From: Promethearchaeia archaeon
GTDB taxonomy: Archaea; Asgardarchaeota; Lokiarchaeia; Sigyniarchaeales; SOKP01
NCBI GenBank assembly: GCA_046497275.1
Contig: JAWOFX010000182.1
Span: 1-19,847 of the forward strand
Length of the DNA stretch: 19,847 nucleotides
Direction: 5' to 3'
A program made the position numbers and the translations under genes. Positions 12,131-19,491 of this stretch are shown here, one piece after another (positions within the stretch are counted from its first letter, which is position 1; the number at the start of each line of letters is the position of its first letter). The notes beneath the pieces are model-generated. The model made no database searches. It was not told the DNA's origin and saw nothing but the letters and a program-made list of their open reading frames with translations.

Positions 12131-14350
12131 TTAGTATTCCGTCTCAAAAGTCCGATTGACTAATTCCGCTGCATCTGAAAAGGGTGCTAAAGCCCCACCC
12201 CAATCTTCCAAAGCTTCTTGATAATTTTCTTGGAATTGAGTAACAAACTGTCTTAGTTGAGTTCTTACTTCAGAAGTCTGATTCCCTTTAATGAAAAGTG
12301 CACCAAATAATTTTTTTCCATACTCTATTAAGATCGTGATATCACCATGATCAATTGTCTTCAAAGCTTCAGTGCTCTTTGTAGTTTCTTTGATAAAAGA
12401 TGTGATGGCAGAGAACATACCTGAAATTAACCCGGGATCTTGAGAAACATCTGTAGAAAATTCGTAGTTGTAGACACCTCGACCGTCTTCATAAATAATA
12501 TATAATCCTTGTTTCTTCACTCGTTCAAAATTATAACTGAACTCAGATTTCCATATTCCTATCCGCCCTTGACCATAAAGGTATTTTAATATGAAATAAA
12601 ATCGTTTAATTTCATCTTCTTCTTGAGGTTTTATTGCACTGAGGATTCTATTTTTTTCCAATTTGGTTAATAGATTTATCACTTCTTCTCTCGAATCTTC
12701 TGGTGTTTCAGGAATTGTTAGTTCATTTTTAGAAACTAAGTATTCACTATCTTTTTCCCTATAATCATTATATGTAAAAAAATTATCCACATTGGTGAAA
12801 ATCATTTTCTTAACATATTTTTCATCAATAGGTATATTAGAGATTTTAAATCTTTTAAGAATGTAATAGGTGAAACATCCCCATAAAATAATGCTAAAGA
12901 GGTATTCCGTATAAATGTAAGGAATTGCTAATATACCTAAAACACCTGTTAAATCTGCTTCTAAGACAGCGCTTCTAAGTGTGAAAAAGTCGAACCCAAA
13001 AAGTGATGTATAACTTACCCGTCCCGTTAGCCAATACTCTTCCGAAGCGAAATTTAATATCGGAGCAAATCCTACAAGGGGAAATAGTATTGAAATTACT
13101 AAAGTTATGAAAACGAATCCTATAAGGCTAGAGAGCACGTTCCTTGAAAATCTAAATACATAAATGAGTGATATTGAAGTGATTAAAATCGGTATCAATG
13201 CAAACAAAATATTTTCTATAATTATTAAAAAATCGAGACTCATAGTCTGGGTTAAATTTGGATCGGCATTGAAGAGACCCGAATTAATTGTGGGATCGGG
13301 ATTAAAACCATATACAGGACCGAAAATCGTAAGGGAAAATATCCAATAAACAACCAAGTAAGCAATAGAAGCAATAAGACCGAACACTACTCCATAATAA
13401 AATCCAGATTTTTTAGCCGTCTTTATTTTTTGTTTTTTGTTTTTCCACCAATCAATTATTTTAATTAAGATAAAAATTGAGATTTGCTCAAAGATATCCA
13501 AAAAAAGAATGAATACAAAAGTGGCCATCATAAAGTAGGCAAAAAAGTAAATAAGAGTATTAAGAGAATCTGTATATTCAATTATAAATAAAAAGATTGA
13601 AATGATTGAAATTGGTGCGCCAACCATATATAAGCTTCGAAATGTTTGTTCTCTGACTTTCTCCCCGAAATATCTTCCCTTAATAGCCAATTTACTTGAA
13701 TATAAAAGTTCGATACTAAAAATAACAACAGCTAAATACACGAAAAGAATCTCTATAAACCACCCAAGAGCGGTCTCTGAGGCGACGAAATCTAATGTCT
13801 CTAACTCTGAAACTTTTAAAACTGTTTGAAGAATATAAAGTGATACAGGTAATAACACTAACATTAATTTCAGAATTTCCTTTTCTCGAGTCCAATCTTT
13901 ATTTAATAATTCATTCTTTATAGTCTCCAATGGACTTCTGTTAAACTCATACGTTAAGTTATTTAGATTCTCCTTTAAGGATCCTTTTTCCTTTCGCAGT
14001 CTGTTCCAAATCATCACGAATGAAATAAGAGGAGCAACAAGAAATATAAATGGCAATGTAGTCAACGGATAGGAAATAAAAGTTGTTATAAGAGTAATAA
14101 AATGTGTAGGCATGTATGCTAGGCTTAGAGCTTCTTGACCTGGAGAGACTTCTAAATTATCTGGGGTCAAATTAAATTGAAATATAACTGGGAGTATCCA
14201 GTAGATGAAATAAAATACGGAAATCCCTATAGCGATTCGATAGTATAATTTTCCAATAGCACGATTCCAAATAAAAATTAATGGAATGAATAGAATAATA
14301 ATGGGAAGTAAATTCAGCACAAGTGTGAGTGAAATTTCTATAGCGGTCAT
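12131..14350 (-). CDS. Large polytopic membrane protein with a putative winged helix and a C-terminal Asgard-type longin domain
   Basis: About 12-13 hydrophobic segments in the first ~500 aa. The last 125 aa (12134-12508) read GLYIIYEDGRGVY...DPGLISGMFSAITSF...IDHGDITILIEYG...LRQFVTQFQENY...DWGG, the longin pattern. Confidence 0.8.
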   Translation of the reverse strand: MTAIEISLTLVLNLLPIIILFIPLIFIWNRAIGKLYYRIAIGISVFYFIYWILPVIFQFNLTPDNLEVSPGQEALSLAYMPTHFITLITTFISYPLTTLPFIFLVAPLISFVMIWNRLRKEKGSLKENLNNLTYEFNRSPLETIKNELLNKDWTREKEILKLMLVLLPVSLYILQTVLKVSELETLDFVASETALGWFIEILFVYLAVVIFSIELLYSSKLAIKGRYFGEKVREQTFRSLYMVGAPISIISIFLFIIEYTDSLNTLIYFFAYFMMATFVFILFLDIFEQISIFILIKIIDWWKNKKQKIKTAKKSGFYYGVVFGLIASIAYLVVYWIFSLTIFGPVYGFNPDPTINSGLFNADPNLTQTMSLDFLIIIENILFALIPILITSISLIYVFRFSRNVLSSLIGFVFITLVISILFPLVGFAPILNFASEEYWLTGRVSYTSLFGFDFFTLRSAVLEADLTGVLGILAIPYIYTEYLFSIILWGCFTYYILKRFKISNIPIDEKYVKKMIFTNVDNFFTYNDYREKDSEYLVSKNELTIPETPEDSREEVINLLTKLEKNRILSAIKPQEEDEIKRFYFILKYLYGQGRIGIWKSEFSYNFERVKKQGLYIIYEDGRGVYNYEFSTDVSQDPGLISGMFSAITSFIKETTKSTEALKTIDHGDITILIEYGKKLFGALFIKGNQTSEVRTQLRQFVTQFQENYQEALEDWGGALAPFSDAAELVNRTFETEY

Positions 14351-14460
14351 TTTTTTTAAAGTGTAAATTTTTTTATTTAACTTATTACATTTATTTAAAT
14401 TAAATATATCTAATCTTCAATAAAGAAATTAAAAACTTCAAATATTTTAAATCTTGTATC

Positions 14461-15564
14461 ATGAGCAAAAAAATTGGTGTTTTATTTGATTATGATTTCT
14501 CCAGCCAACATAATCCACCCTACCCCCATCCCACTTTTATTTCATATGAAAATCCTTTAAGAGTTAAAGCGATTTATAATTATTTCGAGAAGGTAAAACT
14601 TTTCAATGACGACCGTATTATACGGTTAGCTCCAAAACTTATAGATGATCATATGTTAGAATTAGCACATTCTAAATATTATATTGATACAATTCAAAGA
14701 CTCTCGAAGTTTGGTAGTGGGCTTCTCTCAGAGGAGGTTTTTATTGTAAAAGATACGTTTTTACTTGCTAAAAAAGCTATAGGTGGTGTAATAGAGTCCA
14801 TAGATGCCGTTCTTTCTGAAAGAGTAAAACAGTCCTTTGCGATTGTGAGACCACCAGGTCATCATGCAATGCGTGAGAAAGGTGCTGGTTTATGTATTTT
14901 TAATAATATCGCAGCAGGTATATTAAATCTAAAAAATAAGGGTTATAATAAGAAAATAGCCATCATTGATATTGATGACCATTATGGAGATGGACTTGCT
15001 CAATATTTTTATGAAGATCCAGACATTCTCTATTTTTCTGTGCATGAATTTGATTTCCTTGAAGGAGACATAGGATTTATTACAGAAACGGGTGCTGATG
15101 AGGGAATCGGAAAAACCATTAATTACCCCATTCCAATGAACACCACAGATGATAATTTTTTGGAATTTATGGATATAATTGAACTTATTTTAAAAGAGTT
15201 TAACCCAGATATCATTATTGTTGCAGTTGGGTTCGATATGTACTTTGATGATCCAATTGGTAATTGTCTGTTGACTAGTAAATCATACTATGATTTTACC
15301 GTTTCTATAAAAAGAATTGCCGAGAATGTCTGTGAAGGGAGATTAGTTTTCGTTTTAGAGGGAGGATATAGCTTAATCGGACTACCATTATGTGTATATT
15401 CCATAATACGAGCATTGCTTCAAGAAGAGTATATCGATTATGATTTTGAAAAAATAGATTTTTCCAAGTATCGGAGCAACATTGAAATCTCAAAAATTAA
15501 AGAGGCTTTAATAAATCTATTGAAGGATAACTGGAATTGCTTTGATGAGTCTTCTGAACTATAA
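14461..15564 (+). CDS. Zn-dependent histone deacetylase family protein
   Basis: RPPGHHA, CIFNN, DIDDHYGDG (DxH), SVH, GFD..DDPIG and VLEGGY give a complete catalytic set. Confidence 0.93.
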   Translation: MSKKIGVLFDYDFSSQHNPPYPHPTFISYENPLRVKAIYNYFEKVKLFNDDRIIRLAPKLIDDHMLELAHSKYYIDTIQRLSKFGSGLLSEEVFIVKDTFLLAKKAIGGVIESIDAVLSERVKQSFAIVRPPGHHAMREKGAGLCIFNNIAAGILNLKNKGYNKKIAIIDIDDHYGDGLAQYFYEDPDILYFSVHEFDFLEGDIGFITETGADEGIGKTINYPIPMNTTDDNFLEFMDIIELILKEFNPDIIIVAVGFDMYFDDPIGNCLLTSKSYYDFTVSIKRIAENVCEGRLVFVLEGGYSLIGLPLCVYSIIRALLQEEYIDYDFEKIDFSKYRSNIEISKIKEALINLLKDNWNCFDESSEL

Positions 15565-15597: not shown

Positions 15598-15999
15598 TTA
15601 CACTAAAGGTTCCATTTTTTTTGCGTATTCTTGAACAGTAAATAATGCATCACGAGGACCTGCTTGGGGATTTATATAACATACTAGGGCACCCTCTCCC
15701 CCAATAGGTATAGGACATATGATGAGATGACCTTTTCCCTTAATATTAGTACCAATCTTGCGCTCTTCAGTATTCTCTACAATCATGTACTTAATCCCTT
15801 GTACCTCTATACTTGAAATCCCTTTCTCTCCAAGTTTTAATTTCTTTCCAAGGAGCTCATTAAATTGATCCAAATCATTTGAAATATCCCAATTTTCAGT
15901 TTGAGTGACTAAATTACCTTGTGTGTTAATTATTGCGACTCCGTACACGTTTTGTTCTTCATCTAAAAGACTATCAATAAGAGATTCTAATTCAGACAT
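15598..15999 (-). CDS. Profilin (Lokiarchaeota type; eukaryotic signature protein)
   Basis: 133 aa. TQTENWDISND, QGIKYMIVENTEERKIGTN, GKGHLIICPIPIGG and NPQAGPRD closely match structurally characterised Loki profilin as I recall it. Confidence 0.93.
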   Translation of the reverse strand: MSELESLIDSLLDEEQNVYGVAIINTQGNLVTQTENWDISNDLDQFNELLGKKLKLGEKGISSIEVQGIKYMIVENTEERKIGTNIKGKGHLIICPIPIGGEGALVCYINPQAGPRDALFTVQEYAKKMEPLV

Positions 16000-16034
16000 T
16001 TTTTCCTATAATATTAAATGCGTGTTTTTTTATA

Positions 16035-16050
16035 TTAGTAACATTACTAA
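16035..16050. promoter_or_regulatory. Palindrome TTAGTAA-CA-TTACTAA in the divergent profilin/permease promoter region
   Basis: Perfect 7-bp arms at 16035-16041 and 16044-16050 inside the 104-bp intergenic spacer. Confidence 0.4.
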
Positions 16051-16103
16051 AACAATATAAATTAATCATTAATAATACGATAATATCATATCAGTGATTT
16101 CAA

Positions 16104-16646
16104 ATGTTTCGTATGTTCAAGAAAGGAGTGTTGTTAATCCTTAGAGAAAAAAGAACTTTTATAATTTTCATGCTCATTTATACGATATTAATCTTCTTGA
16201 CCAGTTTGTTTTTTGAAAACAGTCTTGCTGGGAATTTTGGTGAGGTCTCTGGATATTTAGTGGTAATCTTTTTATTTACCAGTCTAATTTTATCACTTCT
16301 TTATGCATGGATTCTTGTTTCGCGGAAACGAAGGGACTGGGCAACATTGAAGTGTATAGGATATACAAATAGAAATATAATAACTATAGTTTCAGGTATT
16401 ATTCTATTTACTTCATTAATGGGACTCTTGATTGTAATTGAGATATTATTCCATTACACAGCCATTTTTACGTATATAGATACAACCGAAATTAGTACTG
16501 GATTACCTTCTATTCTTATTGGATTATATCCAGTAATAATAACAACAGTGTTATTTATTTTAGTTCAAGTTATTTCAATAGCGTTAATTTATCGAAAAGT
16601 ATTAAAAGTAAGGCCGATAGTTGCCTTAAAGAGGGTGGGTGAGTAG
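16104..16646 (+). CDS. FtsX/MacB-type ABC permease, minimal 4-TM form
   Basis: N-terminal amphipathic helix, four TMs, coupling helix RKRRDWATLKCIGY (family pattern RxxEIGxLKAxG) and C-terminal KVRPIVALK. Confidence 0.85.
   Translation: MFRMFKKGVLLILREKRTFIIFMLIYTILIFLTSLFFENSLAGNFGEVSGYLVVIFLFTSLILSLLYAWILVSRKRRDWATLKCIGYTNRNIITIVSGIILFTSLMGLLIVIEILFHYTAIFTYIDTTEISTGLPSILIGLYPVIITTVLFILVQVISIALIYRKVLKVRPIVALKRVGE
16638..16642 (+). promoter_or_regulatory. Shine-Dalgarno-like GGTGA for the ABC ATPase, inside the permease 3' end
   Basis: GGTGA 9 nt before ATG 16652 matches the archaeal extended SD; the genes are only 5 nt apart. Confidence 0.55.
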
Positions 16647-16651
16647 AAAAA

Positions 16652-17344
16652 ATGCCAATAGATATGGATACAATGATTGAGGCAATTGATGTAAATAAGG
16701 AATATAGACGATCTGGAGCTATCATTCGTGCGTTAGCAGACGTTAATGTAACTATAAAATCGGGGGAGTTCGTAATCGTCCAAGGTCCCACAGGATGTGG
16801 AAAATCAACGCTTCTTAATGTGCTATCGGGGTTAGATTTTCCAGATTCAGGTAAAATCATTTTTGATGGAGAGAATATCGCAAGATCTACGGAGGACAGA
16901 CTTGCGAGGATAAGACGGATGAAAGTTGGATTTGTATTTCAAGATTTTAATTTAATTAGTACTTTTACCGCATTAGAGAACGTAGAAAGTGTACTTTGGC
17001 CAACCGTGTTAAGAGCGTCCGAGATTGAAAATAGAGCAATCAATGCGCTACGAGACGTGAATCTTCTTGATAGAAAAGATCATTATCCAGTTCAGATGAG
17101 TGGTGGAGAGAAACAAAAATGTGGCTTGGCACGAGCAATAATCCATCGTCCTCGAGTAATTTTAGCTGACGAGCCTACAGGAAATCTGGATCCTCAATCA
17201 GAAAAAGAAATTATGGATTTACTAAAAAAGATTAATAAAGAATCAGACACCACAGTAGTCGTGGTTACTCACAGAGAAAAATTAACATCCTACGCAGACA
17301 AAGTTGTACAAATGAAAGATGGAAGAGTAATCAATGTAAAATAA
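16652..17344 (+). CDS. ABC ATP-binding protein, LolD/MacB/FtsE subfamily
   Basis: Walker A GPTGCGKST, Q-loop GFVFQDFNL, signature MSGGEKQ, Walker B/D-loop ILADEPTGNLD, H-switch VVTH. Confidence 0.95.
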   Translation: MPIDMDTMIEAIDVNKEYRRSGAIIRALADVNVTIKSGEFVIVQGPTGCGKSTLLNVLSGLDFPDSGKIIFDGENIARSTEDRLARIRRMKVGFVFQDFNLISTFTALENVESVLWPTVLRASEIENRAINALRDVNLLDRKDHYPVQMSGGEKQKCGLARAIIHRPRVILADEPTGNLDPQSEKEIMDLLKKINKESDTTVVVVTHREKLTSYADKVVQMKDGRVINVK

Positions 17345-17594
17345 CACTTTTCTTTTAAATTTATATAAATTATCCACTTTTTTTGTATTTTTAAATTCAA
17401 TCAAATATTAAGGAATAATTTTTTCAATAAGTAAAATAATCCTAAATCTAGATTATGTGGTTCATTAGCGAATCTTAACTATTTAAATCAACAAGAAACG
17501 TAAAAAAAAAGATATAAATATTAGGTTTTTTTTAGATTTTATAATTAGGTAAAAAAAAACTAAAAAATATCATATAAAAAATTAGTGAATCCTT

Positions 17595-18329
17595 ATGGGA
17601 ATTGGACGTGTTATTGGTTCGGGTATCGTAGGTATGCTTTTTTTAGTTCCATTTGCTTGGCTTTCTTTTTTTGCATTAGATTTAACTGGAACAGTGACTG
17701 GCGGACTTATTACAGGGTTAAATGATCTCTTTGCCAGTATAGGAGGGCCTATAGGAGCAATACTAACTTTTGTTGGTGGGATGTTTATTGGACTTCTATT
17801 AGTAATATTATTTCCGATTCATTGGGCACTCATGTATAGACCTGATGATGTAATGCTATTAGTAGGGCTTGTAATGCCTTGGGTTTTGGCTTGTACTGTA
17901 GCTTCTGCTATATTTGCTCATTCTCCTCGAGGGGGGCTCCATACAAGTCTTGCAGTAGGAATAGGATATCTAATCTTGAGTTTTGTCCTTTATGGTGTCC
18001 TTCTTTTTATAATTAGAGCAATAAGTGGAGGGATGGGGGGTCTTGTTATAGATCTTATTGATGGGTTAAGTCTAGGACTGACAGACTTGCCTTTTCTAGC
18101 AGCTGTGTCGTTAGCAATATTGGAAGGATGTTTGGTTGGAAGTGTCTTTGGTGCGTTCATCGGCAGCTTAAAATATAAGCCAGAAGGAGCAAAAAAACCA
18201 GTAAAAAAGAAGGGCAAAACACCAGAATCTGAACCTAAATTGGACACATCGGCTGATTATTGTACAAACTGTGGAGCGAAGATAACGCCTGGTAATGAAT
18301 TCTGTACTAATTGCGGTCAAAAAGTCTAA
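17595..18329 (+). CDS. Gly-rich membrane protein with a C-terminal double zinc ribbon
   Basis: About 5 hydrophobic Gly-rich segments, a Lys-rich linker, then CTNCG...CTNCG. Confidence 0.85.
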   Translation: MGIGRVIGSGIVGMLFLVPFAWLSFFALDLTGTVTGGLITGLNDLFASIGGPIGAILTFVGGMFIGLLLVILFPIHWALMYRPDDVMLLVGLVMPWVLACTVASAIFAHSPRGGLHTSLAVGIGYLILSFVLYGVLLFIIRAISGGMGGLVIDLIDGLSLGLTDLPFLAAVSLAILEGCLVGSVFGAFIGSLKYKPEGAKKPVKKKGKTPESEPKLDTSADYCTNCGAKITPGNEFCTNCGQKV

Positions 18330-18341
18330 ATTTATATTTCG

Positions 18342-18359
18342 TTTTTATTTTTATTTTTT
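18342..18359 (+). terminator. Oligo(T) terminator
   Basis: TTTTTATTTTTATTTTTT just after the 18329 stop. Confidence 0.45.
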
Positions 18360-18477
18360 CATTCAATCTCAATTAATTTATGAATCCAATACATTAAAAA
18401 AAGAAAAACCTATATTGTTCATAATAACTTTATTAAATATTAATTTTAGATGATGAGTAGGGAGGTTTGAAATTCGT

Positions 18478-19491
18478 ATGAGTCGTCAGATTAAAGGCGT
18501 ATTGCTAAATCGTATTTTGGTATTAGTTATGATTATATTAATTCCTGTGGCAATATTCTTAATCTTCTTATTCGTTGATTTTGAATTATGGTATTCAACA
18601 GATCCCATATTGACATTTTGGATTATTAAAGTGGCATGTCCACTTGTATTTGGTGTATCATGGTTATTTTTTATGATTTTGTTCGCGGATAGGCTTGCAT
18701 TGACGATAGATTCAATGGATAGAGTAGTCTCAATAATTCCTCTTAGATTAAAATTATTTTATGGTATGATTGCGATAGTTGTATTGTTTATTTTCGTGTT
18801 TCCCTTGATTTCTCCTTTAATTGGAGTTATCAGTTTTATGTCTCTCGCGTGGAGAGCAACGACTTTCAAGAAGAAAGAATGGGGTGATTCAGGAAGTCCT
18901 TTTTATACAAAGATTCTTATGGTTTTAGCTGCCGTGCTTCCAATTTTTTGTAGTGTATCCATCATCCCAGAATATTTAGTCCTTTCTGCCTTTTTAACAA
19001 CTCAAATATGGGCGCCTATAACTGATTTCGTATATACGATCTCATATTGTCTCTGTACCGCTTTAGCAATTGGATCTCTTTTTTATCTTGTTGAAAATAA
19101 AGGAGTAAGTGAATATGAGGTGATTTTGGTTGACACCACTCAAAAGAAGTCGTTTTGGTATGTCAAATTTGTAGAATTAGGATTATTTGTCTTCTTCCTC
19201 TTTTTGGCTTATGGAGGTTTTGAAATCATCGAACTTTTCTATACAGCGGGATTTGTAATCGTAGTTTTTGTTTCAATTGTCAACCATTTTTCAGAAAAAC
19301 AAAAGACAGGAAAGGTAAGAGGACACATTCTTGGCTATCTTTTAGCTGCGATTTTTCTAGGATCTAATTCACTCGTCTTTTATATTGATTTACCAGATTT
19401 TATAAATATTATAAGTTTAATTGTATTAGCAGGTGTGTTTATTGTGGTATTTCTTCTCACCTTTATATATCTTGAAGAAACCAAATTCTAA
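18478..19491 (+). CDS. Uncharacterised multi-pass membrane protein
   Basis: 337 aa with about 10-11 hydrophobic segments. GGAGGT at 18461-18466. Confidence 0.8.
   Translation: MSRQIKGVLLNRILVLVMIILIPVAIFLIFLFVDFELWYSTDPILTFWIIKVACPLVFGVSWLFFMILFADRLALTIDSMDRVVSIIPLRLKLFYGMIAIVVLFIFVFPLISPLIGVISFMSLAWRATTFKKKEWGDSGSPFYTKILMVLAAVLPIFCSVSIIPEYLVLSAFLTTQIWAPITDFVYTISYCLCTALAIGSLFYLVENKGVSEYEVILVDTTQKKSFWYVKFVELGLFVFFLFLAYGGFEIIELFYTAGFVIVVFVSIVNHFSEKQKTGKVRGHILGYLLAAIFLGSNSLVFYIDLPDFINIISLIVLAGVFIVVFLLTFIYLEETKF

Follow-up and report, generated by a model that had tools for sequence, protein, structure and literature searches.

A minimal type VII ABC system of Asgard archaea with a stand-alone permease that lacks an extracytoplasmic domain

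We analysed a stretch of 19,847 nt from a Promethearchaeia archaeon (contig JAWOFX010000182.1 of assembly GCA_046497275.1, GC content ~31%; the whole stretch is called the window here, and coordinates are window positions unless a locus is named) and identified in it a two-gene ATP-binding cassette (ABC) system of type VII, composed of a short permease and a separate ATPase. The permease is a membrane subunit with the MacB/FtsX fold that has no extracytoplasmic domain (ECD). Asgard lineages widely keep this system, in single copy and with an adjacent ATPase whose catalytic motifs are intact, and the family is nearly confined to the Asgard archaea. As the permease has no outer domain, its site of work is probably the membrane interior or the inner face of the cell. 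To our knowledge, every studied type VII ABC system (MacB, LolCDE, FtsEX, HrtBA, BceAB, YbbAP and YtrEF) is understood to work through mechanotransmission to an outer domain. The family described here lacks such a domain but has retained the motor, coupling helices and four-helix fold, which means that this core is selectable on its own.

Residues 52-169 of the permease, covering transmembrane helices (TM) 2 to 4, matched the Pfam FtsX family PF02687 with 37.6 bits (cut-off 25.5 bits), and the short permease of Lokiarchaeum ossiferum passed this cut-off as well. Kyte-Doolittle windows revealed four hydrophobic peaks at residues ~19-37, 52-72, 92-118 and 136-163, leaving a linker of ~13 residues between the first two. 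The AlphaFold2 (AF2) model, calculated with 25 homologues as input, reached a pLDDT of 84.2 and a pTM of 0.77. Its N-terminal half consists of an amphipathic helix (residues 2-14), TM1 (16-42), TM2 (46-74) and a coupling helix (76-85), and its C-terminal half of a long TM3 (89-127), a 13-residue loop, TM4 (141-165) and a C-terminal helix (172-179); in the model, a mere 3-residue turn connects TM1 to TM2. The initial annotation of this DNA had described a protein of 180 amino acids (aa) with a joint of ~13 residues between its first two TM helices, and a retained N-terminal amphipathic helix, coupling helix and C-terminal motif. Indeed, the open reading frame (ORF) and the hydropathy profile agree with the former, and the helices of the AF2 model with the latter.

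Comparison with known structures, which had been proposed for FtsX and MacB, was performed with the single-permease model and placed it among type VII proteins only. The top Foldseek matches were FtsX and HrtB (TMq 0.67 each). In VIA-align, the best match was HrtB (Z 16.2; root-mean-square deviation 2.8 Å over 157 residues), followed by FtsX (14.1), YtrF (14.0), MacB (13.6), LolC (12.8), BceB (12.6) and YbbP (10.8). Altogether, 36 type VII entries spanned Z 16.2-9.9, the lowest being a BceB entry, and unrelated helical folds did not exceed Z 6.3. The alignments to the long type VII proteins run across the point at which their outer domain is inserted. A profile of 25 family members found no chain among the PDB sequences at E up to 1, so the kinship of the permease to solved structures is visible at the fold level only. 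To summarize, the protein has the FtsX signature, the four-TM topology with amphipathic, coupling and C-terminal helices, the fold, and an ATPase of the cognate subfamily; of the type VII features it lacks the large ECD inserted between TM1 and TM2.

This position of the outer domain had been taken as established, and the reviews and surveys of type VII systems describe it in the same way (PMC5985334, PMC11466899, PMC8386196). One characterised four-helix module of the FtsX type has no ECD, namely the N-terminal module of BceB (PMC12646458). In a literature search for FtsX in Asgard archaea and for ECD-less or minimal type VII forms, we found no stand-alone form described, in line with the expectation that such permeases had not been characterised before. 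A survey of Asgard transporters calls the ABC3 systems uncharacterised, and the short form is not mentioned in the parts of its text that we searched (PMC7997004). Therefore, we regard the ECD-less type VII permease as a stand-alone protein as new, its only characterised precedent being the fused first half of BceB.

The ATPase translation holds the Walker A motif, the Q-loop, the signature MSGGE, the Walker B motif with the catalytic glutamate, and the H-loop. It matched the Pfam family ABC_tran with an E-value of 2.1e-32, and its best PDB matches were the type VII ATPases MJ0796, LolD, BceA, YbbA, YtrE and MacB. The best NCBIfam matches were LolD (TIGR02211, 210.2 bits, equivalog cut-off 307.75) and FtsE (TIGR02673, 203.9 bits, cut-off 264.85). 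Since both scores lie under the equivalog cut-offs, the ATPase belongs to this subfamily but is an orthologue of neither protein. The next gene begins 250 bp downstream of the ATPase gene, and we infer from the sequence that the permease and ATPase genes form a bicistronic operon. When all ORFs of 50 loci were clustered, the ATPase gene directly followed the permease gene in 49 of them, the 50th locus being cut by the contig end. No third gene was universal to the pair in these 50 loci, and none of them had a second permease next to it; nor does an adaptor or second FtsX gene adjoin the pair in the window. The claim that no adaptor or second permease is adjacent thus holds for the window and, as regards the second permease, for the 50 loci.

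The short form of the permease is a trait of its family. A word-index search returned 446 homologues of similar length, labelled Lokiarchaeota or Promethearchaeota; all 120 among the matches listed had 170-184 aa. An exhaustive phmmer search of 1.84 billion cluster representatives gave 44 matches at E ≤1e-3, 42 of them with at most 202 aa, and the two longer proteins, of 414 and 372 aa, matched through TM2-TM4 only. Among 190 unique homologues, the length was 157-207 aa and the TM1-TM2 linker 5-36 aa (median 13). This constancy shows that the shortness does not result from an assembly deletion, a possibility that would have required longer orthologues. The mean column identity among 25 Loki-type members was 70%, and the motifs are invariant across the phylum.

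Matches were present in 156 of 301 sampled Asgard genomes. About 145 genomes had the short full-length form (defined as an open frame of ~170-240 aa that spans model positions 2-177), and nearly all of these genomes had one match only; the remaining matches were the TM2-TM4 part of long (~410-aa) FtsX proteins, or fragments. By family of the sampled genomes, the short form was found in 59/68 (f1), 6/7 (f2), 4/4 (f5), 46/76 (f9) and 14/19 (f14), and no match was obtained in the sampled genomes of families f7 (0/28) and f29 (0/11). In five complete or near-complete genomes, exactly one short copy was present, plus long FtsX genes of the single or double type. When one genome of each GTDB species was scanned with a pattern, 40 loci were detected, all of them in Asgard archaea, including Promethearchaeum syntrophicum MK-D1, where the pair lies at L034:3980-5251, L. 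ossiferum, Harpocratesius and Sigynarchaeum, as well as Odin, Hel, Hermod, Hod, Thor, Sif and Atabeyarchaeia genomes. Nearly all named members belong to the Asgard archaea, and the Loki members include the cultured P. syntrophicum and L. ossiferum. A tblastn search against 72,556 plasmids gave no match. In a quick tree, the sequences formed taxon-coherent clades (Loki with Hel as sister, Odin with Hod-type, Hermod, and Atabey), which fits mainly vertical descent.

Two observations lie at the edge of this distribution. A singleton labelled Korarchaeota, on a 3.5-kb contig, has the permease-ATPase pair followed by a gene for a presenilin-family protease; a search seeded with this member returned only itself. 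Feature look-alikes in the ESM Atlas were a 187-aa cluster from Spirochaetota and a 164-aa cluster from Bacillota, which might be independent ECD-less forms in bacteria.

Apart from its unusual shortness, nothing suggests that the permease gene is a degenerating or dead relic of a longer FtsX gene, or that its ORF was wrongly called. Strong purifying conservation, the constant length, the intact ATPase motifs, the coherent clades and the coverage of the genes by RNA-library contigs all argue against this, and conservation effectively refutes it.

The distribution of conservation within the permease points to where it acts. Across 23 diverse members with a mean identity of 36%, the outer loops had the lowest information content (0.95 and 1.24 bits per column) and the coupling helix the highest (3.24), with the TM and cytoplasmic helices at 2.0-2.5. 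The poor conservation of the outer loops argues against a conserved extracellular protein partner, and the pattern as a whole favours a site of function within the membrane or at the cytoplasmic face. The initial annotation had left three possibilities, namely action within the membrane, on cytoplasmic partners, or with a partner encoded elsewhere; our data narrow these, in that conservation lies in the membrane and at the inner face and not outside. R14, Y26, L29, Y67, A80, K83, C84, G86, Q155, P171 and A174 are near-invariant in the 190 members. The outer half of TM3 holds E113 and, one helical turn further on, H117, and 171 of the 190 members have E113 and likewise 171 have H117. In the set of 23, conservation was among the highest at E113, H117, Y124 and Q155. 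Candidate residues of an intramembrane site are the conserved polar positions E113 and H117 (TM3), Q155 (TM4), Y26 (TM1) and Y67 (TM2).

The pair has its own adjacent ATPase and no universal third gene, which indicates a self-contained system. Two permeases and two ATPases would form a 2:2 complex, in which binding of ATP would close the ATPase dimer and the coupling helix would transmit this movement to the permeases. The TM1/TM2 pairs of the two permeases would then zip together, as in MacB, LolCDE, HrtBA and YbbAP, and, with no outer domain to move, the work would be done inside the bilayer. We propose that the complex is an extractor or flippase that squeezes a hydrophobic or amphipathic membrane-resident molecule out of or across the membrane, and assign this reading a probability of roughly 0.45. 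The cargo could be a lipid, a lipid-linked intermediate, a pigment or a toxic compound, and the reaction would resemble extraction by HrtBA without a receiving domain. In LolCDE, HrtBA and BceAB, the substrate is held at the level of the outer leaflet in the membrane domain. The same applies to YbbAP, a type VII system that extracts a membrane-resident substrate (PMC12646458). Since type VII extractors hold their substrates in the part that the Asgard permease has retained, an extractor or flippase is the most economical reading.

Several points weigh against it. The type VII extractors studied so far use their outer domain to receive the substrate or hand it on, and we know of no precedent for an ECD-less extractor. 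In the loci analysed, no substrate, lipid-metabolism or exporter-related gene was consistently linked to the pair, and the neighbours that are conserved within lineages (profilin, an ARPC4-like protein and a Ras-type GTPase; Table 1) suggest a regulatory role. The membrane placement of the conserved polar residues is derived from topology only. In addition, TM3 and TM4 are peripheral in MacB-type folds (PMC5985334), so a central cavity would not necessarily be lined by E113 and H117.

Table 1 Features of the window and of other loci with the permease-ATPase pair. Positions without a prefix are window positions; prefixed ones (L, G000:C48) refer to other loci or contigs.
Feature	Position	Strand	Basis or remark
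180-aa FtsX-domain permease, 4 TM, no extracytoplasmic domain	16104..16646	+	ORF, Pfam, hydropathy, AF2, VIA-align
5-base spacer, permease stop to ATPase start	16647..16651	+	sequence; preceded by GGTGAG-like ribosome-binding motif
230-aa ABC ATPase of MacB/LolD/FtsE/MJ0796 type	16652..17344	+	Pfam, NCBIfam, PDB matches, motifs
A+T-rich divergent intergenic region (104 bp) shared with profilin gene, putative promoter region	16000..16103	.	sequence
T-rich stretch 3' of ATPase stop, putative archaeal terminator	17345..17400	+	sequence
133-aa profilin, divergent neighbour; context, not shown to be a component	15598..15999	-	Pfam Profilin
244-aa multi-TM protein with C-terminal zinc ribbon, lineage-specific neighbour	17595..18329	+	Zn_Ribbon_1 at residues 222-243
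Block syntenic in four closest genomes	12131-15564 and 17595-19491		flanks profilin and ABC pair
Profilin in other loci	L034:3537-3959; L017:5672-6052; L037:4962-5342		linkage to pair
Cys-rich ARPC4-like neighbour	L013:5598-6731; homologues in L018, L040-L044, L056	+ (L013)	weak ARPC4 matches
Ras-family small GTPase, two f9 genomes	L014:3931-4497; L020:3929-4465	-	E ~1e-48
Longin-like protein, f20 locus	L019:5769-6389	+	weak match
c190, ~190-aa 4-TM protein, Hermod-type	L049:3341-3913 and 10 other loci	+	highly conserved; 48-91 bp upstream of permease gene
GtrA/DPMS-type 4-TM protein, P. syntrophicum group	L034:5309-5815	-	after pair
YidC/EMC3-like insertase homologue, P. syntrophicum group	L034:5993-6592	+	after pair
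Radical-SAM protein, P. syntrophicum group	L034:6610-7674	-	further on
FtsX gene of the window genome cut by contig end	G000:C48:5074-5361 (L004:1471-1788)	-	followed by 471-aa Asn/Ser-rich protein
Korarchaeota-labelled pair and presenilin-family protease gene	L061:226-2397		3.5-kb contig

A regulatory role would fit a second explanation, in which the pair is a signal or force transducer: the ATP cycle of a minimal FtsEX-like complex would act on a membrane-intrinsic or cytoplasmic partner. Precedents are BceAB, which works together with the kinase BceS, and E. coli FtsEX, whose target is the actin homologue FtsA. In its Asgard version, such a transducer may have a part in regulating actin or remodelling membranes. 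The concentration of conservation on the cytoplasmic face and in the membrane agrees with this explanation, and so does the membrane-intrinsic partner of BceAB (PMC12646458).

Further support comes from the neighbouring genes. The profilin encoded in the window was recognized by the Pfam Profilin model with E 3.2e-5 and 24.5 bits, slightly short of the cut-off of 25 bits. In 19 Lokiarchaeia loci, the pair directly adjoins a profilin gene, mostly head-to-head and at permease identities down to 36%. In the Sigyn-like locus L037, the order is permease-ATPase-profilin on one strand, so the linkage has survived a rearrangement. MK-D1 and Harpocratesius have no profilin match in their genomes besides the linked one; in the window genome, three weaker profilin-like matches lie at other places. 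In Odin/Hod-type loci, the divergent position is occupied by a Cys-rich protein of 377-434 aa with sub-threshold matches to Pfam ARPC4 in 5 of 7 cases (best E 9.7e-5), and in two f9 genomes a gene for a Ras-family small GTPase lies divergently upstream of the pair. Finally, the membrane proteins that adjoin the pair in single lineages (zinc-ribbon, c190, GtrA-like and YidC/EMC3-like) could be counted as candidate partners.

Nevertheless, no partner is conserved across the phylum. Profilin is distant from the pair in Odin and Atabeyarchaeia, other lineages have housekeeping neighbours (CoA-transferase, Tsr3, ELP3 and phosphoglycerate mutase), and synteny inside one class may simply be inherited. 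The ARPC4 matches lie under the Pfam cut-off. The AF2 model of the 377-aa Odin protein was poor (pLDDT 54.8), its PDB profile search gave nothing useful and its Atlas search nothing, so that the link to ARPC4 comes from the sub-threshold Pfam matches alone. Small GTPases are so common in Asgard genomes that their adjacency may well be due to chance. A complex prediction with permease, ATPase and profilin, in which the profilin was scored, gave 0.00, which is evidence neither way. We consider a transducer the main rival of the extractor reading, but less likely than it. A specific version, in which an ATP-driven membrane module peculiar to Asgard archaea is coupled to their actin machinery, appears improbable to us. 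In it, the cytoplasmic face would recruit or regulate profilin, actin or ARPC4-like factors at the membrane, similar to the action of bacterial FtsEX on FtsA. If this were true, Asgard cells would have an energised membrane-to-cytoskeleton link that predates the eukaryotes.

A third explanation assumes that the short permease is half of a heterodimer whose other half is an ECD-bearing FtsX permease from another locus, in the manner of LolC and LolE, or that it mimics the first module of BceB. Other Asgard genomes do encode single-FtsX permeases of ~386-431 aa beside the short one, and the window genome has an FtsX gene whose N-terminal part is cut off by a contig end. BceB itself combines an ECD-less module with an ECD-bearing one (PMC12646458), and our model aligns to its residues 1-184. 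However, none of the 50 loci has a second permease next to the pair, which comes with an ATPase of its own. In the window genome, the other complete FtsX genes encode self-sufficient double-FtsX proteins of 645-991 aa, that is, fused double modules, and no MacB_PCD domain (PF12704) was detected in this genome. The heterodimeric type VII permeases known to us are encoded side by side. Pairing with an ECD-bearing permease had been named as a way in which the proposal could fail; no such permease adjoins the pair in the 50 loci, and pairing with a distant one is improbable.

Returning to the self-contained extractor or flippase that we prefer, the remaining neighbours offered no general component. 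The 244-aa zinc-ribbon protein and a 337-aa membrane protein were considered as universal partners and ruled out by jackhmmer searches across all loci, which showed them to be lineage-specific; the former is present in only 10 of the 50 loci, in either orientation. In the four genomes closest to the window, both belong to a syntenic block with the order 739-aa polytopic membrane protein (-), histone-deacetylase-family gene (+), profilin, ABC pair, zinc-ribbon protein and 337-aa membrane protein, and L019, a distant f20 locus, has a homologue of the latter behind its ATPase gene. In the same locus, a weak longin-like match occupies the upstream position at which the two f9 genomes have the GTPase. 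The Cys-rich protein of the Odin/Hod-type loci also has weak ATC_hydrolase matches. In Hermod-type loci, c190 is encoded upstream on the same strand as the pair; it has no Pfam family, was not found in the window genome and may be a lineage-specific partner of the pair. Its possible origin as a paralogue of the short permease was rejected, as there was no detectable homology (hhalign probability 0.2). In the P. syntrophicum group, the genes after the pair encode the GtrA/DPMS-type protein and the insertase homologue and, further on, the radical-SAM protein.

Four salt-lake metatranscriptome libraries from two studies contained contigs that matched the window with at least 99% identity and covered the genes for profilin, the permease, the ATPase and the zinc-ribbon protein. 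We take this as a weak hint of expression, since these are contigs and DNA carry-over is possible. The permease/ATPase junction (16636-16647) was bridged by no listed contig of the four libraries. Several contigs start at 16640-16647, one of which (X9, at 16646) has an adapter sequence directly before its start; this could be an internal 5' end or a mere assembly break. Because the data are contigs and not reads, neither the gaps in intergenic coverage nor the breaks at this junction carry information.

With ~410 residues per half, the pair is the smallest natural system in which the function of an isolated type VII membrane domain can be studied. Asgard archaea are the closest prokaryotic relatives of eukaryotes, and the pair is present in both cultured Lokiarchaeia, where it adjoins the profilin gene. 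As the family is nearly restricted to Asgard archaea, its function bears on their membrane biology and is testable in existing cultures.

Among the known systems, HrtBA (PDB 7W7C, 7W7A and 7W78) is the best structural match of the permease and likewise has a separate LolD-type ATPase. It is a heme extractor and thus acts on a hydrophobic molecule resident in the membrane. HrtB differs in having an ECD between TM1 and TM2, so the 157 aligned positions, at 14% identity, are spread over residues 1-342 of its chain. FtsEX (PDB 8TZJ, 8I6Q and 8W6I) shares the four-TM FtsX fold, the separate ATPase and the two-gene operon, but FtsX acts through its ECD on partners of the EnvC, PcsB or RipC type and on peptidoglycan hydrolases, where the outer domain binds a cell-wall hydrolase activator. 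Unlike in FtsEX, the permease gene precedes the ATPase gene here, the ATPase scores below the FtsE equivalog cut-off and the outer domain is lacking. MacB, LolCDE, YbbAP and YtrEF have the same membrane fold (Z 10.8-14.0) and ATPases of the same subfamily, and LolCDE and YbbAP extract membrane-embedded substrates; they differ by their large outer domains of the Porter/Sabre type and their external partners (MacA-TolC, LolA and TesA). The Asgard pair is not a LolCDE system either, having a LolD score under the cut-off and a single short permease instead of a LolC/LolE pair with periplasmic domains. BceAB (PDB 7TCG, 8G3A and 8S5G) comes closest with regard to the missing domain, since the permease model matches the ECD-less first module of BceB (residues 1-184, Z 12.6). 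BceB, however, is a single 10-TM chain that has an outer domain between TM7 and TM8 and works with the kinase BceS, whereas the Asgard module stands alone with 180 aa and four TM helices and is therefore presumed to form a homodimer without any outer domain.

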